Below, in pieces: positions 9,723 through 44,972 of a stretch of 46,259 bases of DNA. Every line of letters begins with the position of its first letter. Position 1 is the first letter of the stretch. Source of the DNA: Candidatus Nomurabacteria bacterium (GTDB lineage Bacteria; Patescibacteriota; Minisyncoccia; Phycocordibacterales; UBA9973); contig CAIOXK010000024.1 in NCBI GenBank assembly GCA_903862255.1, forward strand, positions 1 through 46,259, read 5' to 3'. The notes under the pieces were generated by a model, which ran no database searches, was not told the origin of the DNA, and saw only the letters and a program-made list of their open reading frames with translations. Position numbers and translations under genes: made by a program.

Positions 9723-10997
9723 TTAAATATTCATCGCTTTCTTACGGCGGTCTTGGTGAAATGTCACTGCAAAACGATGGGCCTCATTATTAGCTAATAA
9801 AATAGCGAATTTATTATTTTCTACTATTTCTTGTTTACCACTAATTGATTTTGCCTTGTGGTGCTCGTCTTTTGTTACTGCAACTACAGGTATTTCTAAT
9901 TGTAGTTCAGCCAAAACCTGCTCAGCTGCATTGATTTGAATAGCATTACCATCTACAACAATTGCTGATGGATATTGCCATTCTGTATGTGACAAACGAC
10001 GAATGAGCATTTCTCGTAATGCACCGGCATCATTAGCCTTATCAAAACCACGAATAATAAATTTACGATATTCATTTTTATTGGCGGCAGAGTTTTCAAC
10101 TACAGTCATCACGCCGACCATATGCTTACCAGAAATATGGGCAATATCGTAAGCCTCTAGGCGAAAAATATTTTCACCACTAGCTCTTTCAAGATCGCGC
10201 CTAATTAATGAAATATCTTGAATGTGTTCTAATGCAAATACTTTTTGTTTTAATATAGCAGCCTCCTCAAAAGCCTCAGCTTTTGCAGCAAAAACCATTT
10301 CTTTTTTTAACCCAGAAATAAGTGGCCTCAATTTACCCTGGAAAATTAATTTAATTCGGCTTATGTTTTTTTTATATTCTTGTACAGCTTCAGTATTTGA
10401 AACGTCTGGGGCTAATGCAATCTGTCGATAAAATACCTCTTTGTCTTTCTGAGCACTTGCGCGGTCGCGGTAGGGGAAAATTTTACGAATAATTTTTAAT
10501 GCTTCACGGATAGAAGGACCGTTAGGGAAAGGACCAAACACTGTGTCATAAGCAGTATTAAATAATCCTAAACGGGGCAATGTAACAGTTTTTGCTTGAC
10601 TATCAATATCTTTTTGTCGAACTAAAATAATACGCGGATAGTCTTCTTTGGTGATTGCGACAATATTAAAACTCTTATCATCTTTTTCTTTAGTGTTGTA
10701 GTACGGCTTATATTTCTTAATTAAATTTGCTTCAAGGATGAGTGCTTCAAGAACTGTCGGTGTAGTTTCGAATGCGACAGTTTCAGTCTTGAATACCATA
10801 TCTACAATATGTGCCCCGCGCGTTTTAATAATATCAGGAGCAAAATATGAACGTACACGATCACGCAACGAAGTAGCCTTACCTATATATAAGACCTCTC
10901 TACCATCATATCCGCTGCCTATTCTTTTTTCGCCAAGCCAGAAATAAACTCCTGGCTCAGCTGGTAACTCCAATGTATTTAACTCTTGACGTATCAT
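9723..10997 (-). CDS. uvrC: Excinuclease ABC subunit C, short form lacking the C-terminal (HhH)2 domain
   Basis: GIY-YIG N-terminus (PGVYFWLGE..VLYIGKATSLRDRVRSYF), a UVR motif region, and the RNase-H-like endonuclease domain (EAYDIAHISG..). The protein ends at EAHRFAVTFHQDRRKKAMNI. Confidence 0.88.
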   Translation of the reverse strand: MIRQELNTLELPAEPGVYFWLGEKRIGSGYDGREVLYIGKATSLRDRVRSYFAPDIIKTRGAHIVDMVFKTETVAFETTPTVLEALILEANLIKKYKPYYNTKEKDDKSFNIVAITKEDYPRIILVRQKDIDSQAKTVTLPRLGLFNTAYDTVFGPFPNGPSIREALKIIRKIFPYRDRASAQKDKEVFYRQIALAPDVSNTEAVQEYKKNISRIKLIFQGKLRPLISGLKKEMVFAAKAEAFEEAAILKQKVFALEHIQDISLIRRDLERASGENIFRLEAYDIAHISGKHMVGVMTVVENSAANKNEYRKFIIRGFDKANDAGALREMLIRRLSHTEWQYPSAIVVDGNAIQINAAEQVLAELQLEIPVVAVTKDEHHKAKSISGKQEIVENNKFAILLANNEAHRFAVTFHQDRRKKAMNI

Positions 10998-13060: not shown

Positions 13061-13120
13061 TCCCTAATAATAAAAAAATAGTGATCAATCTAATCTCTAT
13101 AAAATATAAAGATTGTATAA

Positions 13121-13147
13121 AACAATAGGGGTTTAACCCCTGTTATT
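13121..13147. repeat. REP-like hairpin, left copy (AGGGGTTTAACCCCT); also acts as terminator of the transposase-like gene
   Basis: aacaatAGGGG-TTTAA-CCCCTgttat. On the minus strand the hairpin is followed by TTTTATAC. Confidence 0.8.
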
Positions 13148-13797
13148 TAATTCTTGCCAAGTAATCTATATCTTTTCTTATTATTTTTTACTTCTTCTAA
13201 AACCTGGTATGCATATTTTTTATATTCATCTTTAGTCTCAAACTGTTGCAATATAAGACTATGTTTAGTGCAAATACTTCTACCTTGATACTTATAGTCA
13301 ACATACTGACTCCAGCTTGAATAATATTTATAATTAATCGGGGTTAAACCCCTATTGTTTTCCTGATCATCATTTAAGTTAATATACCCAGAAACATACA
13401 ATAAATATTCATTTGTGTTTACATGTTTCGATTTATAGGTAGCCTCAAATAGCGCACCAGATCGTTCATTTTTATTGTTTAAATATAATGTATAACCACC
13501 CTGTAGTCGCTTCATAAACTCACTTATTCCACCATCAACTTCTTGCTGTATCAAAAAATGAAAATGGTTTGGCTGTAATGAATATGCAAGAAAACTCACT
13601 AACGGATTTTTAATAGCAAAACCATTAAGTCGTATTTGCTTATTAAGGCTTTCAACTGGCTCAATATTATTAAATACTATCAATGCGTCGCTAAATCTTT
13701 GTATATCTAAAAAGTCTAAAAAAATATCTCTCTTATCTACACCTCTGTTGTAAATATGATATATCTCTCCAGTAGTAATATTTTTTGGCTTCCTCAT
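13147..13797 (-). CDS. IS200/RAYT-like HUH-Y1 (tyrosine) transposase family protein
   Basis: GEIYHIYNRGVDKRDIFLD, HUH motif PNHFHFLI, and a C-terminal Tyr in YVSGYINLN..YYSSWSQY. I place the start at ATG 13797; the track start at 13803 is a TTG. Confidence 0.8.
   Translation of the reverse strand: MRKPKNITTGEIYHIYNRGVDKRDIFLDFLDIQRFSDALIVFNNIEPVESLNKQIRLNGFAIKNPLVSFLAYSLQPNHFHFLIQQEVDGGISEFMKRLQGGYTLYLNNKNERSGALFEATYKSKHVNTNEYLLYVSGYINLNDDQENNRGLTPINYKYYSSWSQYVDYKYQGRSICTKHSLILQQFETKDEYKKYAYQVLEEVKNNKKRYRLLGKN
13340..13359. repeat. REP-like hairpin, internal inverted copy inside the transposase-like ORF
   Basis: GGGGTTAAACCCCTATTGTT is the exact reverse complement (20/20) of 13121-13140. 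It is read in frame as NNRGLTPI. Confidence 0.85.
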
Positions 13798-13851
13798 GTG
13801 CAAAATACTGTAACAAATTATCTTTCAAGTTTTTCTTGATAATAAATAAAA

Positions 13852-13875
13852 ACAAAGGGGTTTAACCCCTTTGTT
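13852..13875. terminator. REP-like hairpin, right copy; intrinsic terminator of uvrA
   Basis: Perfect 10-bp stem AACAAAGGGG-TTTAA-CCCCTTTGTT, followed by T-rich tracts on both strands. Confidence 0.8.
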
Positions 13876-13880
13876 TTTAT

Positions 13881-16532
13881 TTATAAAATTTTCTTAAGAT
13901 ATGTTCCGGTGTGAGAATGTTTATTGTTAGCAATTTCCTCTGGTGTGCCCTTTCCTACTACCTTACCACCGTGCACTCCACCCTCTGGGCCGAAATCAAT
14001 CAACCAGTCAGCGGTCTTAATGAGGTCAAGGTTATGCTCAATTACGACAACTGTATTACCTTTTGCAACCAGTCTATTTAATACGCCAATAAGATTTTTG
14101 ACATCGTCATAGTGCAGTCCAACTGTTGGTTCATCGAGTAAGTAAATAGTTTTCTCTAAGTATGGACGATATAGCTCAGATGCGATTTTCACACGCTGTG
14201 CTTCACCACCTGATAATGTTGTTGCAGATTGGCCAAGCTTCACATAATTCAAACCTACATCAGACAATGTTTTCAATCGATCTGAAATTGCTGGAATATC
14301 AGTAAAAAATTCCTGTGCCTCCTCTACAGTAAGCTGTAGGACGTCGTAAATACTTTTCTTTTTGTATTTCACTACCAGAGTCTCCTTATCAAAACGCTTA
14401 CCATTACAAACATCGCACGTTACATAAACAGTTGGGAGAAAGTGCATTTCAACAGCTATTTCTCCATTACCTTCACAAGCTTCACAACGACCACCTTTTA
14501 CGTTAAATGAAAAACGGTTCACTTTCCAGCCACGGAGGCGAGCTTCTTCTGTAGCAGCAAATAGTTCGCGAATATGGGTAAATGCTCCAGTATAGGTAGC
14601 AATGTTTGAACGAGGAGTACGACCAATTGGAGACTGGTCGATCATAATTGCACGAGCAAGATACTCACTGCCAGTAAATGATGCACAGTTAAATACCTTG
14701 GCACTGCGAAGTTTGCGCTCAAAACGAGCCTGCAAATTACTATAAAGTACGTCATACAAGAATGTACTTTTACCTGAACCAGACACGCCAGTAATCGCAA
14801 CTAGTCGCCCCAGCGGCACATCGATATTCAAATTATGAATATTGTGCAAATTTGCTCCAACAATTCTAAGCGTTCCCTTATCTTCACTGCGACGTTTTTC
14901 TGGTACTTCGATTTGCGCCTCCTTACGAAGATATGCAAGTGTACGTGAACCTGAATCATTTTTCTTTGCTGATAATAGTTCATCAAGGTATCCAGATACT
15001 ACTACTTGCCCGCCATGCACGCCTGCTTTTGGGCCAATATCAATAATATAGTCAGATGCATAAATAGTATCTTCATCGTGCTCAACAACAATAATAGTAT
15101 TACCAATATCACGAAGTGCTTCAAGAGTCTTGATCAATCGTTCATTGTCACGTTGGTGCAAACCAATAGTTGGTTCATCAAGTACATACATTGCCCCTAC
15201 TAAACGTGAGCCAAGCTGTGATGCCAAACGAATACGCTGTGCCTCTCCACCAGAGAGCGTATTGGCCGTCCGACTGAGTGCTAAGTATTCTAGTCCTACA
15301 TTCAATAAAAAAGTAAGTCGGTCTTCAATTTCTTTTACAATTACTTTTGCAACTTCTTTATCTTTTGCAGTAAGTTTTAATGAGCCAAAAAAATCAAAGG
15401 CTTCTTCAACTGACATAGCTGTGAGGTCGACAATGTTTGTACCATGCACGCTGCCATCTTTATCTGATTTACTTGCAGACAAAAAAACATTCAACGCTTC
15501 GGGGCGAAGACGCTTGCCATGACATATATCACAGGGTTCTGAGCCACCAAAAAATTTTGTACCTATACCATTACATTCAGGACATGCTCCATACGGACTA
15601 TTAAAAGAAAATAGGCGAGGTTCAATTTCTGGAAAAGAGAAACCATCATTTGGACAAGCAAATTTACTTGAGAGTAGAAATTCCTGTAATAAGTCTGTGT
15701 CCATTGAAAAATCAGGTGACGTTCCAAATGTAATCTGCACTAAACCATCAGCTTCAAGCAGTGCTCGCTCTACTGCCTCAGACAAACGAAGTTCTGCATC
15801 ACGAGGAGTATCTGTAAATTCATGCACAGCAAGTTCGTCCACAAGCACCTCAATAGTGTGCGGAGTAGTTTTATTCATCTCAATTTTTTCGCGGAGGTTT
15901 TTTGTCTTACCGTCTACTCGCACAGTTGAGAAACCGCGACCGAGCAAATCGTACAGTAACTGATAGTACTCACCTTTGCGTCCACGAACAATCGGAGCAT
16001 ACACCTGAATACGAGTATCGTTCCAGGCTACACCCATCACTTCTTTGTTTTTACCTTTTGAAAGTTCTTTGATTTTACCAAGAATAAAACCATTAATTTC
16101 TTCCATTGAAAGTTTCTGAATCAATGTGCCACATACTGGACAATATGCCTTACCTACGCGCGCATAAAGGACGCGCAAGTAGTCGTAGATTTCTGTAATG
16201 GTAGCAACAGTCGAACGAGGATTATTTGATCGAGATTTTTGATCAATTGAAATTGCTGGCGAAAGGCCGGTAATCTCATCAACATCCGGTTTAGGCATTT
16301 GATTTAAAAATTGTCGCGCATACGAGGACAATGACTCAACATAACGACGTTGGCCTTCAGCAAAAATAGTATCAAAGGCAAGAGAACTCTTACCTGACCC
16401 TGACATACCAGTAATAGCCACCATCGCATTACGAGGCATTTCTACTGAAATATTTTTTAAATTATGAGTTCGCGCGCCCTTAACAGTAATAACTTCGGTT
16501 GCACTTCCTATCACTCTGTTTCGTTTTTCCAC
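13881..16532 (-). CDS. uvrA: Excinuclease ABC subunit A
   Basis: KGARTHNLKNISVEMPRN, two ABC ATPase modules (GMSGSGKSSL, GVSGSGKST, LSGGEAQR twice) and Zn-finger Cys clusters. The start is GTG 16532, or possibly GTG 16514. Confidence 0.95.
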   Translation of the reverse strand: MEKRNRVIGSATEVITVKGARTHNLKNISVEMPRNAMVAITGMSGSGKSSLAFDTIFAEGQRRYVESLSSYARQFLNQMPKPDVDEITGLSPAISIDQKSRSNNPRSTVATITEIYDYLRVLYARVGKAYCPVCGTLIQKLSMEEINGFILGKIKELSKGKNKEVMGVAWNDTRIQVYAPIVRGRKGEYYQLLYDLLGRGFSTVRVDGKTKNLREKIEMNKTTPHTIEVLVDELAVHEFTDTPRDAELRLSEAVERALLEADGLVQITFGTSPDFSMDTDLLQEFLLSSKFACPNDGFSFPEIEPRLFSFNSPYGACPECNGIGTKFFGGSEPCDICHGKRLRPEALNVFLSASKSDKDGSVHGTNIVDLTAMSVEEAFDFFGSLKLTAKDKEVAKVIVKEIEDRLTFLLNVGLEYLALSRTANTLSGGEAQRIRLASQLGSRLVGAMYVLDEPTIGLHQRDNERLIKTLEALRDIGNTIIVVEHDEDTIYASDYIIDIGPKAGVHGGQVVVSGYLDELLSAKKNDSGSRTLAYLRKEAQIEVPEKRRSEDKGTLRIVGANLHNIHNLNIDVPLGRLVAITGVSGSGKSTFLYDVLYSNLQARFERKLRSAKVFNCASFTGSEYLARAIMIDQSPIGRTPRSNIATYTGAFTHIRELFAATEEARLRGWKVNRFSFNVKGGRCEACEGNGEIAVEMHFLPTVYVTCDVCNGKRFDKETLVVKYKKKSIYDVLQLTVEEAQEFFTDIPAISDRLKTLSDVGLNYVKLGQSATTLSGGEAQRVKIASELYRPYLEKTIYLLDEPTVGLHYDDVKNLIGVLNRLVAKGNTVVVIEHNLDLIKTADWLIDFGPEGGVHGGKVVGKGTPEEIANNKHSHTGTYLKKIL

Positions 16533-16538
16533 GGATCA

Positions 16539-16557
16539 ATTATAACACGAAAGTCAA
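16539..16557 (-). promoter_or_regulatory. uvrA promoter region: TTGACT-N7-TGtTATAAT-N6-GTG
   Basis: The minus strand reads agtTTGACTttcgtgtTATAATtgatccGTG. The TTGAC box is only 7 nt from the -10, too close to act as a -35. Confidence 0.55.
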
Positions 16558-16571
16558 ACTCTGGCGACCTG

Positions 16572-16580
16572 TGGTATTAT
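16572..16580 (+). promoter_or_regulatory. Extended -10 promoter (TGgTATTAT), 9 nt upstream of ATG 16590
   Basis: cctgTGgTATTATtaccaacatATG. Confidence 0.5.
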
Positions 16581-16589
16581 TACCAACAT

Positions 16590-17042
16590 ATGAACATACC
16601 TCGTGTAGATCACATGGCAATCAGATTTTTTCGCCATATTAGCATTCCACTTGCCCGTATCTCACTTTTTGTTATTTATTTTTGGTTCGGTATATTAAAA
16701 GTTATTGGACTTTCGCCCGCATCAGGACTTGTATATGCACTGTATAATCAAACAATTCCATTTGTGCCATTTCATGCATTCTATTTAGCATTTGCATTAT
16801 TTGAGTGTTTAATTGGTATTCTTTTTCTCATCAAGGGTGCAGAACGTATTGTTATTCCATTACTATTGGCACACTTAATTACTACCATCTTGCCACTTAT
16901 CTTTCTTCCTGATATGGCATGGCAACACTGGTTTGTACCAACTCTTGAAGGTCAATACATCATCAAAAATTTAGCATTGATCACTGCAGCAATTGCAATT
17001 GCTGCACACCTTCACCCTCTGCCACATAAAATTGAGAAATAA
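16590..17042 (+). CDS. Small integral membrane protein (tentatively DoxX/DUF417-like)
   Basis: 150 aa from ATG 16590, with 4 TM segments. The longer track ORF (from 16464) overlaps the uvrA 5' end and the promoter region. Confidence 0.6.
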   Translation: MNIPRVDHMAIRFFRHISIPLARISLFVIYFWFGILKVIGLSPASGLVYALYNQTIPFVPFHAFYLAFALFECLIGILFLIKGAERIVIPLLLAHLITTILPLIFLPDMAWQHWFVPTLEGQYIIKNLALITAAIAIAAHLHPLPHKIEK

Positions 17043-17068
17043 AAAAATGGGGCCAGACCCCATTTTTT
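17041..17068. terminator. Bidirectional terminator between convergent genes; GGGG-N5-CCCC type hairpin
   Basis: AAAAAAATGGGG-CCAGA-CCCCATTTTTT. Confidence 0.8.
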
Positions 17069-19124
17069 ATGTATTAATATATGTTCTCTCTCGCAACACC
17101 TTAATTTCATCTCGCAATATTGCAGCTGTTTCGAAATCGAGCAACTTTACTGACTCTTTCATCTCATCTTCTTTCATTTTAATTAATTTTTCGATAGGAT
17201 TACGCTTGCCCTTCTTCCCTTTCATATCTTTTTCAAGTTGCGCGAAGAGTTCGATATCAAGCTCAAGCTCTGCATTCACAGCCTTGGCATGAGGACTTTC
17301 CATTCCCTGTGTGATATCAAGAATTTTCTTTTGAATAGTTTTTGGTGTAATGCCGTGCTTTTTATTATATGCCAACTGAATATTACGACGACGAAGTGTT
17401 TCTGCCATCGCACGTTCCATTGAACCAGTCATATTATCAGCGTACAAAATAACACGACCATTTGAGTTACGAGCAGCGCGACCAATTGTTTGAATTAATG
17501 ACACTTCGCTACGCAAAAACCCTTCCTTGTCAGCATCGAGAATACCGATCAATGTTACTTCTGGCATATCAAGCCCTTCGCGGAGCAAGTTAACACCGAT
17601 CAACATATCAAATTCACCCTTACGAAACTGAGTAATAATTTTAATACGATCAATTGTCTTAATGTCACTGTGAATATACGCAGCCTTGATTTTCTTTTCC
17701 TTCAAATAATCTGTCAGGTCTTCAGCCATACGCTTTGTTAGTGTCGTTGCAAGTACGCGACCGCCTTTTGCAATTTCAATTTCTGCCTCATTGATAAAAT
17801 CATGCACTTGTCCGTGATAGTCACCATTTTCAAGAATAGGCCGTACGTCCACCAGCGGATCAACAAGACCAGTAGGTCGAATAATTTGTTCTACCACTTT
17901 TGTCGCATGCTCTAGTTCATACTTGCCTGGCGTAGCAGACACAAAAATTGTATTACCGATGCGCTCTTTAAATTCTTCAAACTTCAATGGGCGGTTATCC
18001 TTTGCACTTGGCAAGCGAAAACCAAAATCCACCAGAGTTTGCTTGCGCGATGCATCACCCGCATACATACCGTGCAATTGTGGAAGTGTTACGTGTGACT
18101 CATCGATAAAAAGCATGAAGTCTGGCGACCCGTCAGCCTTATGTGGGAAGTATGACAACAAAGTCTCTGGTGGTTCTCCAGCTGATTTGCCTGACATATG
18201 ACGAGAGTAGTTTTCGATACCAGAACAGTATCCGATCTCTCGAATCATAGCGAGGTCATAACTTGTACGACGCTTAATGCGCTCTGCTTCAAGTAACTTT
18301 CCTTCTAATTCAAAATGCTTCAACTGTTGATCGAGCTCATGCTTAATATCAGCGATAGCTCGCTCACGTTCGTTTTCATTGGTAATGAAGTGCTTTGTTG
18401 GGAAAATAAAAATAGTTTCTTCGTCATTTATAATACGAGATGATACTGGATCAATTTTCAAAATACTACTCACACTGTTTCCTGAAAATTCAATTGAATA
18501 TTGAAAAGTGTCAGAGATTGGCATTACGTCAACCTTATTTCCTAGCGCACGAAATTGTCCTGACTCTAAATCAGCGTTTGTACGAGTGAAGTGAATACTG
18601 ACTAACTTCTCCATAAACTCTGTACGAGAAATTTTCATACCTTTCTCTACTTTGAAATTTTCTTTTTCATACTCAACTGGAGAGCCCAAGCCGTAAATAC
18701 AGGAAACTGATGCAACAATAATCACATCATTACGAGTAAGCAATGATTGTGTTGTGGCGTGTCGAAGCCGATCAATTTCTTTGTTGATCTGCGCATCTTT
18801 CTCAATGAAAGTGTCTGTTACGGGCATGTATGCCTCTGGCTGATAGTAGTCGTAATACGATACGAAATAGTGCACAGCATTGTTTGGAAAAAATTCCTTA
18901 AACTCAGAAGCTAGTTGAGCGGCCAATGTTTTATTGTGAGCGATAACAAGGGTTGGTTTTTGAATTTCTTTGATGATATTAGCCATCGTAAACGTCTTAC
19001 CAGTCGCAGTTCCACCCAACAGTGTCTGAAACTGCTCGCCGTCTTTTAGGCCTTGTAATAAGCCTTTTATTGCCTTCGGCTGGTCGCCTGCAGGTAGGTA
19101 GTGATCTGATAACTCAAATTTCAT
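17067..19124 (-). CDS. uvrB: Excinuclease ABC subunit B
   Basis: GGTATGKTFTMANII, helicase motifs, and a C-terminal UVR domain (LDFETAAILRDEIKVLRE). 685 aa. Confidence 0.95.
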   Translation of the reverse strand: MKFELSDHYLPAGDQPKAIKGLLQGLKDGEQFQTLLGGTATGKTFTMANIIKEIQKPTLVIAHNKTLAAQLASEFKEFFPNNAVHYFVSYYDYYQPEAYMPVTDTFIEKDAQINKEIDRLRHATTQSLLTRNDVIIVASVSCIYGLGSPVEYEKENFKVEKGMKISRTEFMEKLVSIHFTRTNADLESGQFRALGNKVDVMPISDTFQYSIEFSGNSVSSILKIDPVSSRIINDEETIFIFPTKHFITNENERERAIADIKHELDQQLKHFELEGKLLEAERIKRRTSYDLAMIREIGYCSGIENYSRHMSGKSAGEPPETLLSYFPHKADGSPDFMLFIDESHVTLPQLHGMYAGDASRKQTLVDFGFRLPSAKDNRPLKFEEFKERIGNTIFVSATPGKYELEHATKVVEQIIRPTGLVDPLVDVRPILENGDYHGQVHDFINEAEIEIAKGGRVLATTLTKRMAEDLTDYLKEKKIKAAYIHSDIKTIDRIKIITQFRKGEFDMLIGVNLLREGLDMPEVTLIGILDADKEGFLRSEVSLIQTIGRAARNSNGRVILYADNMTGSMERAMAETLRRRNIQLAYNKKHGITPKTIQKKILDITQGMESPHAKAVNAELELDIELFAQLEKDMKGKKGKRNPIEKLIKMKEDEMKESVKLLDFETAAILRDEIKVLRERTYINT

Positions 19125-24887: not shown

Positions 24888-24915
24888 ATCCCACTTCGCT
24901 AAAGCTACGCGGGAC
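24888..24915 (+). repeat. 28-nt element, copy A (ATCCCACTTCGCTAAAGCTACGCGGGAC), in the rpsB 5' leader
   Basis: 27/28 identical to the reverse complement of 44945-44972. Confidence 0.85.
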
Positions 24916-26950: not shown

Positions 26951-27026
26951 GCCGGATTAGCTCAGTTGGTAGAGCAACGCTTTTGTAAAGCGAAGGTCGT
27001 CAGTTCAAGTCTGACATCCGGCTCCA
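26951..27026 (+). tRNA. tRNA-Thr (anticodon UGU), with encoded CCA
   Basis: Manual cloverleaf: acceptor GCCGGAT/ATCCGGC, D arm GCTC-AGTTGGTA-GAGC, anticodon loop TT-TGT-AA, T arm GTCAG-TTCAAGT-CTGAC, discriminator T, then CCA. Confidence 0.9.
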
Positions 27027-30982: not shown

Positions 30983-31039
30983 ATATTTGTCATAACATCC
31001 TATCACAAATAGCCTGTTTTTTCTAGCCCAGATGTGGGG

Positions 31040-31045
31040 TATACT
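31040..31045 (+). promoter_or_regulatory. -10 box TATACT, 6 nt upstream of ATG 31052
   Basis: gtggggTATACTtggataATG. Confidence 0.4.
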
Positions 31046-31051
31046 TGGATA

Positions 31052-31876
31052 ATGGAATCACAAGAAACAACACCAAAAGATACTCCGGAAATTACAACTT
31101 CTACTGAAAATTCTACACCGCCCTCCTCCGCCACGGTAGGAGAAGTAAATAAACAGTCTACTAACATTGCTGCGGCTATTGTTACTAGTGTGGCAATGAT
31201 TGCCATTGCATTAGTTATCATTCTCCATCCAAGTAGCACAAATACTACTCCAACAAATCCTGCTGCTGCACAGGCCACAGACCAGACAGCTCCTGCTACT
31301 CCAACATCTATTCCTGCTGACATCGCAACACTTCGTCCAAGTGATACAAACTATGTTCGAGGTGACGTGAATACAGCACAGGTATTAATTTTTGAATACT
31401 CTGATAGTGACTGTCCTTTCTGTGTTCGTTTTCACCCAACACTGCAACAAGTAGTAAATGACTACAAAGGCAAAGTTGCTTGGGTATATAGATTTTTCCC
31501 TCTTACTTCATTACACCCAAATGCATACAATGAAGCACTTGCACTTAGTTGTGCTGGTCAGCTTGGCGGATCAAAAGTATTTAATAACTACCTCGACAGC
31601 GCAATCAATATAACCGTAAATCCTGACCCTAAGAGTGATGAGATTCTGACAACGTTCGCTACACAAAATGGCCTTGATGCAACAAAGTTCAAAGCATGTA
31701 TGGCTGCCCCAGCAACTGCAACAGTAATACAAACCAGCATTGACGAAGCAAATAAAATTGGTGCGCAAGGAACTCCTTTCAGTGTGATTGTAAACAAAAC
31801 TACAGGTAAGCAAGTTATTATTCCTGGTGCCTACCCTATCTCAGACATAAAGAAAGCGGTTGATTCAGTCATGTAA
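31052..31876 (+). CDS. Membrane-anchored DsbA-family thiol:disulfide oxidoreductase
   Basis: CPFC active site (EYSDSDCPFCVRFHP), GTPFSVIV near the C-terminus, an N-terminal TM and a Thr/Pro/Ala linker. The track start at 31034 is a GTG. Confidence 0.8.
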   Translation: MESQETTPKDTPEITTSTENSTPPSSATVGEVNKQSTNIAAAIVTSVAMIAIALVIILHPSSTNTTPTNPAAAQATDQTAPATPTSIPADIATLRPSDTNYVRGDVNTAQVLIFEYSDSDCPFCVRFHPTLQQVVNDYKGKVAWVYRFFPLTSLHPNAYNEALALSCAGQLGGSKVFNNYLDSAINITVNPDPKSDEILTTFATQNGLDATKFKACMAAPATATVIQTSIDEANKIGAQGTPFSVIVNKTTGKQVIIPGAYPISDIKKAVDSVM

Positions 31877-31923: not shown

Positions 31924-31936
31924 GGGGACTGTCCCC
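31924..31936. repeat. GGGG-ACTGT-CCCC hairpin, intergenic copy
   Basis: The 16-mer GGGGACTGTCCCCTTT is identical to 43600-43615 inside trmD. Confidence 0.8.
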
Positions 31937-31952
31937 TTTCTCAAGAAATAAT

Positions 31953-31984
31953 AAAAACCTCCAGATATCTGGAGGTTTTTATTT
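31953..31984. terminator. Bidirectional terminator between the dsbA-like gene and rpoD
   Basis: AAAAACCTCCAGAT-ATCTGGAGGTTTTT (20-bp palindrome). Confidence 0.85.
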
Positions 31985-42024: not shown

Positions 42025-42165
42025 AATTTGAACGTGCTCCTTCGCCGAAGGCTTCGGCGACAGAACCAAAAATAGCCTCAAGTTTCCCTGATGGCGTTAA
42101 TCTATAAAACTCTCATAATTTACAGGTCTCTCTACCGTAACCCTTCCACAATCTGTAATGCCTAT

Positions 42166-43115: not shown

Positions 43116-43850
43116 TTATATGTCAAAATTTTTTTGGTTTTTACGCCACTCTTCAATCTTCTTATGATCTCCTGAGATCAATACCGGTGGTACAGCGTAT
43201 TTTTTAGGTTTAACTATTTTTGTAGTCTTGCCTGATTTTGCGGATGTGGGCGTGCCCCGCATAGTTTTGGCGGAGTGGGGCCATACAAGAACCTCTGGAC
43301 GAGTAAATACGCGAGGACTAGCATTTCGCAACTCCTCTACTGATTCGTGTGTGCCAAGTACTCCGGGGATCTGACGACAAATAGCATCTGTCATAACCAA
43401 TGCTGGCAATTCACCTCCTGTTAATACAAAGTCACCGATTGATACTTCTTCCGCTTTCAAGATAGTTCGTACGCGATCATCTACTCCTTCATACCTTCCA
43501 CATATAAACACAACATCACTATATGATTTCGCCCATTTTGCCGCCATGGTATTGGTAAACATGGCACCAGTCGGCGAAAGCATTACTACTTTTACCTTAG
43601 GGGACTGTCCCCTTTTTAAAGATAATTTCAATTTATTATAGGCACGTAGAATTGGCTCTGGTGTCATAACCATTCCTGGACCACCGCCATATGGGCGTTC
43701 ATCAACTTTCTTATGTTTATCCAGCGTATAATCACGGATATTTTTCACATCAAAAGACACGAGCTTCTTTTCAGATGCGCGCCTCAACATTGCTTCGCTG
43801 AGATAGCTTTCGATCATCTCTGGGAAAATTGTTAGAAAGTGAAATTTCAT
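43116..43850 (-). CDS. trmD: tRNA (guanine37-N1)-methyltransferase
   Basis: ERPYGGGPGMVM, ICGRYEGVDDRV, SIGDFVLTGGELPALVMTDA. Carries an insertion of about 25 aa before VPPVLISGDH. Confidence 0.93.
   Translation of the reverse strand: MKFHFLTIFPEMIESYLSEAMLRRASEKKLVSFDVKNIRDYTLDKHKKVDERPYGGGPGMVMTPEPILRAYNKLKLSLKRGQSPKVKVVMLSPTGAMFTNTMAAKWAKSYSDVVFICGRYEGVDDRVRTILKAEEVSIGDFVLTGGELPALVMTDAICRQIPGVLGTHESVEELRNASPRVFTRPEVLVWPHSAKTMRGTPTSAKSGKTTKIVKPKKYAVPPVLISGDHKKIEEWRKNQKNFDI
43600..43612. repeat. GGGG-ACTGT-CCCC hairpin inside the trmD coding sequence
   Basis: Read on the minus strand as K-R-G-Q-S-P-K. The 16-mer is identical to 31924-31939. Confidence 0.8.
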
Positions 43851-44944: not shown

Positions 44945-44972
44945 GTCCCGCGAAGCTTTAGCGAAGTGGGAT
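44945..44972 (-). repeat. 28-nt element, copy B (minus strand ATCCCACTTCGCTAAAGCTTCGCGGGAC), abutting the rpsP stop codon
   Basis: 27/28 identical to 24888-24915. Its 3' GGGAC pairs with the following GTCCC (GGGAC-ac-GTCCC). Confidence 0.85.

Follow-up and report, generated by a model that had tools for sequence, protein, structure and literature searches.

How does one and the same perfect hairpin come to stand between two genes and, in frame, inside an essential one? The question is raised by a 46,259-nt stretch of a metagenome-assembled genome of the Patescibacteria (Paceibacterota/Nomurabacteria-like; contig CAIOXK010000024.1, about 39% G+C and 92% coding; the whole stretch is called the window hereafter). 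Its plus strand carries the 16-mer GGGGACTGTCCCCTTT twice, 11.7 kb apart, once in the spacer between a dsbA-like gene and rpoD (31924-31939) and once inside trmD (43600-43615), the gene for the tRNA (guanine37-N1)-methyltransferase. The coding strand of trmD reads AAA AGG GGA CAG TCC CCT AAG, that is K-R-G-Q-S-P-K, and both copies and their reading, first pointed out in a prediction made from the letters alone (the original prediction below), are confirmed in the sequence. The hairpin in trmD comprises 15 bases with a perfect 6-bp stem (AGGGGA/TCCCCT) and a 3-nt loop, CAG, which is exactly one codon, and extends into an imperfect outer stem; beyond the 16 identical nucleotides the twins agree in 8 of 10 adjoining bases on one side and in nothing on the other.

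The open reading frame (ORF) of trmD is intact and keeps the conserved motifs, TrmD entries of the PDB were matched and 8000 homologues were found. Because the identical protein is encoded on three independently assembled contigs (ENA, Logan and NCBI), an assembly artefact is ruled out. The residues R80 to P84 (43613-43599), located in the translation ...LKLSLKRGQSPKVKVVMLSP, belong to a segment which in an AlphaFold2 model connects the helix of residues 64-72 to the strand of residues 86-97, and the aligned Staphylococcus aureus TrmD (3KY7) has a gap of six residues opposite the insert. Homologues with 63-81% identity (BLASTP) are numerous; when 37 sequences were aligned over the segment between the helix end ...ILRAxxKLK and the strand KVVMLSP, the loop ranged from 6 to 29 residues, in agreement with the original prediction, which had placed the palindrome in a variable loop before this strand. 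RGQSP was found in none of the 36 aligned relatives, encoded by non-palindromic codons or otherwise. The commonest form is the short loop MKGKKT with its close variants, and this is what the nearest relatives, the loci L083 and L176 (the latter with an RpoD 92% identical to that of the window), possess. On a neighbour-joining tree MKGKKT-type loops are interspersed with insert-bearing lineages, which implies that inserts were gained several times independently; RGQSP is a lineage-specific, in-frame insertion in a hypervariable surface loop of TrmD. The spacer homologous to the site of the intergenic twin lacks the twin in L175 and L176 and holds ordinary A/T-flanked terminators only; since the nearest relatives also have the minimal loop, both copies are lineage-specific.

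Palindromes of other sequence occupy the same loop in relatives. A metagenome scan with the clade-specific TrmD N-terminus provided about 20 usable relatives; a contig scan with the whole TrmD alignment (universal motifs) gave, among the matches listed, almost only distant taxa and one usable locus, L003. In the related Paceibacterota perfect palindromes, differing from lineage to lineage, make up nearly every loop insert of at least five residues (Table 1). Of 33 long loops in homologues for which only the protein is available, 10 show antisense symmetry over three codons or more per arm, compared with 2.3 +/- 1.3 in shuffles. That the stems are kept paired at the cost of the peptide is shown by L090 and L091 (GGAGGT/ACCTCC versus GGAGAC/GTCTCC) as well as by L088 and L090, either pair being distinguished by two compensated base pairs with altered amino acids. 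Between L088 and L175 the hairpin loop is inverted (CAG versus CTG), and the two copies of one palindrome in L086 differ in phase and have their loops in opposite orientations. Where DNA is available, the hairpin loop mostly coincides with a single codon; for TTA and TAA loops the avoidance of stop codons partly forces this phase.

The palindromes are concentrated in trmD, which has 1.13 perfect GC-containing hairpins per kb, about eight times the 0.145 per kb of the remaining coding DNA of the same loci (binomial P 8e-8, a value that ignores shared ancestry and concerns a gene already under scrutiny); for comparison, shuffled window sequence has roughly 0.09 per kb. In five other orthologous genes of these loci, inserts of at least five residues contain no stem longer than 5 bp, and the trmD genes of L083, L093, L105 and L108, which include the nearest relatives of the window, are devoid of any hairpin. 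The conserved core of the protein is concerned as well: in several relatives a perfect palindrome with a 13-bp stem, GGACGAAATCTCC-nnn-GGAGATTTCGTCC, encodes the motif DEIS.GDFV, with a synonymous-codon identity of 90-100% among L088, L090, L091 and L094 (70% versus L109), compared with 31-60% elsewhere in the gene. In L109 pairing is kept through a compensated pair that changes D to N. The core palindrome is absent from the trmD of the window, which encodes AEEVSIGDFV at this place.

Dispersal over kilobases is likewise not confined to the window. In L175 the palindrome of the trmD loop (661-677) recurs 18 kb away (18950-18966) in the gene for a class II aminoacyl-tRNA synthetase; these twins share 20 identical nucleotides, TTGGCGACCAGGTCGCCATA, with the loop inverted (CAG versus CTG), in the same codon phase and in frame, and the left arm of the synthetase copy is native conserved sequence (LGD). 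The pair is an independent replicate of the trmD/intergenic twins of the window. Between genomes, the 16-nt loop palindrome of L103 (1935-1950, read as NPPAGGG) is the core of a bidirectional terminator in L112 (1713-1728), which sits between a KH-protein gene and trmD, upstream of the latter; the chance probability of this match is estimated at about 0.05, given the few free positions in a palindrome. A census of hairpin twins in 18 related loci (about 330 kb) detected repeated hairpins only at trmD loops or at loci of the RAYT-like transposase described below, with 0.00 in shuffles, and apart from L103/L112 and L175 no second copy of a relative's loop palindrome was found in all 2.1 Mb of fetched loci.

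The twins had originally been counted among six hairpins of one kind. Indeed GGGGNNNNNCCCC (GGGG-N5-CCCC) matches the window exactly six times (13128, 13340, 13857, 17049, 31924 and 43600), whereas 100 dinucleotide-preserving shuffles average 0.07 matches, with one at most and none reaching six, and the predicted excess over expectation stands. The six are, however, heterogeneous and no single family: three belong to the RAYT-like locus, one (17049) is terminator-like, and the two twins form the dispersed pair. The palindrome at 17049, with the flanks A7/T6 between a gene at 16464-17042 (plus strand) and uvrB at 17067-19124 (minus strand), looks like a plain bidirectional terminator; its core differs from that of the twins in 2 of 13 nucleotides (11/13 match) and has the CAG centre in common with them, so that the dispersed set comprises the ACTGT pair only, with 17049 perhaps as a further member; with the RAYT-type hairpin the pair and 17049 have no more than clamp and spacer in common. 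The intergenic twin is located 48 nt past the stop codon of the dsbA-like gene (31034-31876, plus strand), ahead of both the main bidirectional terminator (31950-31983) and the stop codon of rpoD (32006), and was flagged by the terminator scan on the minus strand only.

The remaining three hairpins surround and enter a gene for a RAYT-like Y1 (HUH) transposase, RAYTs being the transposases of repetitive extragenic palindromic (REP) sequences. Its product scores 34 bits with PF01797 (cut-off 23), possesses the motifs HFH (HUH) and YVSGYINLN (Tyr), and reaches 23 bits with the NCBIfam equivalog REP_Tyr_transpos, below the 80-bit cut-off. The family counts 2245 homologues, mostly in Patescibacteria, and the gene has the same context on all four contigs that carry it; tblastn against all fetched loci detected it in the window and in L172-L174 only, tblastn against plasmids gave a single distant Pseudoalteromonas match, and a scan of viral contigs yielded no homologue. 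The gene is bracketed by cognate hairpins with similar flanks (13857 and 13128) and holds an inverted copy in its ORF (13340), the form common to the three being GGGGTTWAACCCC; the in-ORF and the downstream copy have 31-nt arms that are 90% complementary.

The copy within the gene reads R-G-L-T-P in the same phase as the trmD copy, as the original prediction had stated, but its interpretation as a further case of colonisation does not hold: because N-R-G-L-T-P-I aligns with the family-wide motif L-G-G-x-T-[PAS]-K-L, the hairpin inside the gene is no insertion. Antisense symmetry of LGGxTPKL is seen in 88 of 105 homologues, compared with 7.8 +/- 2.5 in shuffles, and in 55 of the 88 the arms extend over five codons (HQLGGETPKLV). 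The sole homologue with DNA, in L173 (9970-10860), has the same order as the window, hairpin, Y1 domain, in-frame hairpin, C-terminal part and hairpin, with a different stem, CTTGGCGG-N5-CCGCCAAG, that occurs upstream, in frame inside, past the stop codon and again past an orphan module. On the grounds of this shared layout and of the antisense-symmetric motif, it appears that genes of the RAYT-like family bear an in-frame copy of their cognate hairpin; we know of no description of a cognate hairpin in frame inside the transposase gene for RAYTs. The orphan in L173 is a second C-terminal module beyond the stop codon, bounded by the same hairpins, and suggests duplication or cassette exchange at the hairpins.

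The proposed link of the RAYT-like gene with the trmD hairpin fared unevenly. The two hairpins of the window share clamp, spacer and phase (A-GG GGT TTA ACC CC versus A-GG GGA CAG TCC CC), and some variants of the motif in the RAYT-like family (LGDQVAK, LGGSTSK and LRSETPK) are similar to peptides in the TrmD loop of relatives (YGDLVAN, FGGSTSK and LRSLASK). These likenesses of sequence are the best evidence for the link and render it no more than suggestive. The evidence is indirect, since GC-clamped palindromes between TT and AA are prone to yield similar peptides, and the link gains nothing from the rest of the 46 kb, which is free of RAYT-type hairpins.

In-frame colonisation of genes by short repeats, on the other hand, is strengthened by many further cases. 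Besides the palindromes in relatives, these include a second repeat, family C, of about 30-36 nt with the peptide SAKASARQGK, which has the in-frame form ACCTCCTCCGCTAAAGCTWCGGCGCGTCAAGG and the intergenic form ATCCCACTTCGCTAAAGCTWCGCGGGAC. The second variable region of TrmD holds two diverged tandem copies, CCCACTCCGCCAAAACTATGCGGGGCACG (PHSAKTMRGT) and CCCACATCCGCAAAATCAGGCAAGAC (PTSAKSGKT), and residues 194-211 have a pLDDT (AlphaFold2 confidence) below 50; R-G-T-P at 43247-43258, earlier taken for a degenerate third case of the hairpin, is part of one of these copies. Relatives contain family C in TrmD loops 1 and 2, in RpoD and in a solute-binding protein, always read (T)SSAKA[ST]A... / TSSAKA[ST]ARQGK, and Rfam provided no credible match, E-value mode included. 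Being in frame in TrmD and RpoD, family C lends independent support to in-frame colonisation by repeats.

Two side observations concern this family. In trmD loops 1 and 2 of L089 and L098 and in loop 2 of L088, quasi-palindromes are nested in the middle of family C units, for example CCGCTA-[TTACCGCGCCAAAGGCGGGTA]-AAGCTACGG, and it looks as if new hairpins insert into the middle of older ones or grow out of it. The core 13-mer of the family (CGAAGCTTTAGCG, on the opposite strand) also turns up in frame in a distant phylum, in L069 (Geomonas diazotrophica, about 10780-10860), where a C-terminal tail of repetitive sequence (EALAKA...TEALAKAEGG) lengthens the TrmD ORF; this may be a coincidence.

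We favour, with moderate confidence, the explanation that the trmD hairpin is an ultra-short REP-like hairpin repeat, tolerated in the loop and kept perfect by arm-to-arm template switching. A low-copy dispersed hairpin repeat of 15-20 nt would have placed a copy in frame in the tolerant surface loop of TrmD, and the residues R-G-Q-S-P would be a by-product of this nucleic-acid element. Copies would spread as single-strand hairpins, with the RAYT-like Y1 transposase as the likeliest mobiliser; mobilisation by this enzyme is plausible, judged from the GGGG-N5-CCCC hairpin that its own gene carries as cognate hairpin, in frame and in the same phase. After insertion, template switching within the hairpin during replication would keep the arms complementary, which would account for perfect stems, compensatory double changes and loop inversions alike. 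A number of observations weigh against this account. With up to two mismatches the RAYT-type hairpin GGGGTTTAACCCC was found nowhere in the 46 kb outside the RAYT locus, and the hairpin of L173 has no further copy in the adjoining 10 kb, so that classical REP proliferation is not seen; the loop and the fifth stem pair set the trmD hairpin apart from that of the RAYT-like locus; and none of the six hairpins carries a GTAG or CGTC tag, the bases before GGGG being ATAG, ATCG, AAAG, AATG, ATAT and TTAG. Most loop palindromes of relatives are without a second copy within +/-10 kb. Random insertion explains neither the roughly eightfold hairpin density in trmD nor the non-palindromic inserts in the five other genes, the 13-bp palindrome of the conserved trmD core cannot be an insertion, and half of the synthetase palindrome of L175 is native sequence. 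A further-reaching proposal, that patescibacterial RAYT-like Y1 transposases both carry their own recognition hairpin in frame (translated as LGGxTPKL) and seed a hitherto unnoticed class of ultra-short, translatable hairpin repeats, inserted in frame in essential genes with the TrmD loop preferred, is tentative and on balance doubtful; in its stronger form the trmD hairpins would also be selected as structures.

A rival to the favoured explanation is a purely mutational origin, in which replication template switching (quasi-palindrome correction) makes and maintains the hairpin with neither a mobile element nor a dedicated enzyme, the loop tolerates the products, and the twin arises via ectopic template switching or gene conversion. 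Template switching is known from published work by features seen here, namely compensatory changes of several bases, extended stems and inverted loops; L089 and L088 have palindromes nested in the middle of older ones, the core palindrome arose on the spot out of codons already present, one half of the L175 synthetase palindrome is native sequence, and the window hairpin runs on into its imperfect outer stem. In the ancestral-type loop AAA GGC AAG the one possible seed is AAAGG...C AAG. Yet local events do not yield identical copies of 16-20 nt at distances of 12-18 kb, and a genome-wide bias should hit other genes too, where hairpins hardly exceed their density in shuffles and inserts are non-palindromic, which leaves the concentration in trmD unaccounted for; we regard this origin as unlikely.

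That concentration is what a selected, trmD-specific nucleic-acid structure, of mRNA or DNA, would explain, with the peptide as the price paid. Such a structure might reduce the expression of trmD or set its timing with respect to the ribosomal-protein gene upstream, pause translation of the knotted protein or stop antisense transcription, and it is in line with the compensatory changes that override amino acids, with the codon conservation of the core palindrome, paired in L109 through the D-to-N change, and with TTTTT following the window hairpin on the antisense strand. The sense strand past the hairpin (...TCCCCTAAGGTAAAAG), however, is without a U-tract, on which ground a sense-strand terminator or attenuator was rejected; the site was not flagged in the terminator scan, and the predicted sense-strand fold (61 nt, -14.2 kcal/mol) is only moderately unusual (z -2.5). 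As many lineages are hairpin-free in trmD, hairpins vary in position and number, the core palindrome is missing from the window and twins in unrelated places are not accounted for, selection for structure appears quite improbable. Mere coincidence, a palindromic GC-rich loop-coding sequence happening to match an unrelated terminator-like hairpin, could appeal to the estimate that an exact shared 16-mer is not rare in 46 kb (of the order of one pair, for uniform composition) and to the abundance of short GC-clamped hairpins as terminator cores; in view of the excess of GGGG-N5-CCCC sites, of zero repeated hairpins in shuffles, of the recurrence in L175 with a different sequence and of palindromes in the same loop in at least six lineages, we consider it very unlikely. 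Two further candidates were rejected: a mimic of the tRNA anticodon arm for TrmD autoregulation, as the loops are 3 nt and variable, and a DNA uptake sequence, for which the density is far too low.

Table 1. Hairpins, repeats and genes of the window and of related loci (L numbers).
Feature	Position	Strand	Sequence or remark
trmD, tRNA (guanine37-N1)-methyltransferase, 244 aa	43116..43850	-	PF01746, E 1e-45
In-frame trmD hairpin	43599..43613	-	AGGGGA-cag-TCCCCT = R80-G-Q-S-P84; plus-strand twin identity 43600-43615
Hairpin motif of the trmD/31924 pair, further spellings			GGGGACWGTCCCC; GGGGNCWGNCCCC
Intergenic twin	31924..31939	+	GGGGACTGTCCCCTTT; 129-nt spacer between dsbA-like gene and rpoD
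RAYT-like Y1 (HUH) transposase gene, 216 aa	13147..13797	-	PF01797, E 3.5e-8
Perfect 20-bp-stem palindrome	13842..13884		around GGGGTTTAACCCC; upstream of RAYT-like gene, at uvrA stop; site 13857
In-ORF hairpin	13340..13352		GGGGTTAAACCCC; in frame N-R-G-L-T-P-I; inverted partner of downstream copy
Downstream hairpin with flanks	13119..13149		GGGGTTTAACCCC; directly past RAYT-like stop codon; site 13128
Terminator-like palindrome	17042..17068		AAAAAATGGGG-ccaga-CCCCATTTTTT; perfect 11-bp stem; between convergent genes
L086 loop palindromes			GGAGC-tta-GCTCC; CGGGAGC-taa-GCTCCCG
L088 loop palindromes			ATTTGGGAGC-tta-GCTCCCAAAT; GTAGCGAC-cag-GTCGCTAC
L090 loop palindromes			ATTTGGAGG-ctcaa-CCTCCAAAT; GGAGGT-cgg-ACCTCC
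L091 loop palindrome			GGAGAC-cgg-GTCTCC
L103 loop palindrome			TCCGCCAGCTGGCGGA
L175 loop palindrome			TGGCGAC-ctg-GTCGCCA
Core palindrome of trmD	L088 10453-10481; L090 10411-10439; L091 10408-10436; L094 1635-1663; L175 826-854; L109		L109: variant
Family C, two diverged tandem in-frame copies	43215..43275	-	TrmD second variable region
Family C, intergenic	24888..24915	+	ATCCCACTTCGCTAAAGCTACGCGGGAC
Family C, intergenic	44945..44972	-	abutting rpsP stop codon; near-identical to 24888-24915
Family C, in frame, 12 residues	33131..33166	-	CACCTCTTCCGCCAAAGCTACGGTAGTCAAGGCAAAA; Lys/Ala-rich N-terminal tail of rpoD
Family C in relatives	L084 10240; L003 10234, 10588; L088 10285, 19760; L086 3426

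Two other structured elements of the window may be recorded. A tRNA gene (26951-27023, 68.7 bits) is the sole Rfam match at the gathering threshold, and a hairpin (T)CGCCGAA-gcc-TTCGGCG(A), conserved between the window (42042-42060) and L084 (11524-11540), directly precedes the AAGGAG ribosome-binding site and the ATG of rpoB. A program-made ORF with a TTG start runs across the latter, which is possibly a regulatory or stability element of the 5' untranslated region.

Among described systems, REPs occur within genes and are tagged by GTAG/CGTC (Di Nocera et al., 2013; PMC3733652). The elements described here resemble the REP/RAYT systems as short GC-rich hairpin repeats that are found between genes, often downstream of them, and in frame in functional genes, together with an apparently single-copy, RAYT-like Y1 (HUH) transposase gene bracketed by cognate hairpins. 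They differ as perfect palindromes of 15-20 nt without the tag, REPs being imperfect and 20-40 nt long, in their low copy number of 2-3 per 46-54 kb with the RAYT-type hairpin itself undispersed in the sampled DNA, and in the cognate hairpin which is also in frame inside the transposase gene. Membership in the REP/RAYT system proper, of which the tag is a defining feature, is not established. Rickettsia palindromic elements (RPEs) stand in frame in essential genes, where they encode surface-loop peptides, and also in non-coding DNA (PMC3733652). With them the trmD hairpin shares the in-frame insertion at a surface site of a functional gene, while RPEs are about 100-150 bp in length and restricted to Rickettsia, against a unit of 13-16 nt and five residues in Patescibacteria; family C is nearer to RPEs in size, still much shorter and unrelated in sequence.

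Template switching is able to create and maintain hairpins (Monttinen and Loytynoja, 2022; PMC8794818), with examples in yeast coding sequences (PMC8604942). Its products are likewise characterized by perfect stems, compensatory changes, loop inversion and stem extension, also in coding sequence, but are local, neither forming identical copies kilobases apart nor concentrating in one gene. The GC-clamped stem and A/T-rich flanks of intrinsic terminators are recognizable at 17049 and in the palindromes that flank the RAYT-like gene, whereas the trmD copy lies inside an intact ORF and its sense strand has no U-tract. Full-text literature searches retrieved no paper on palindromic in-frame inserts in Patescibacteria. 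In-frame REPs and RPEs are known; the present elements differ from them in the size of 15-20 nt, the perfect palindromy, the lack of a tag, the clade-wide recurrence at one site of an essential gene and the in-frame hairpin inside the RAYT-like gene family.

If the favoured explanation is true, the smallest known translatable repeats (15-20 nt, 5-7 residues) repeatedly reshape, at one site, an essential and drug-targeted enzyme of the Candidate Phyla Radiation (CPR), and the loci compared here present a compact system for the spread of hairpin repeats without a full transposon, the preservation of stems by template switching and the creation of protein-loop diversity by elements that act on the nucleic acid. 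In practice, marker genes of the CPR that contain inserts of this kind may be misaligned and give misleading phylogenies. With an in-frame hairpin conserved in a family of over 2000 RAYT-like genes, the poorly understood relationship of REPs and RAYTs would become open to tests in a further lineage and, should the more doubtful seeding of repeats by RAYT-like transposases hold as well, hairpin-encoded peptides of the G-G-x-T-P type would be a recurrent source of new loop sequence in reduced genomes.

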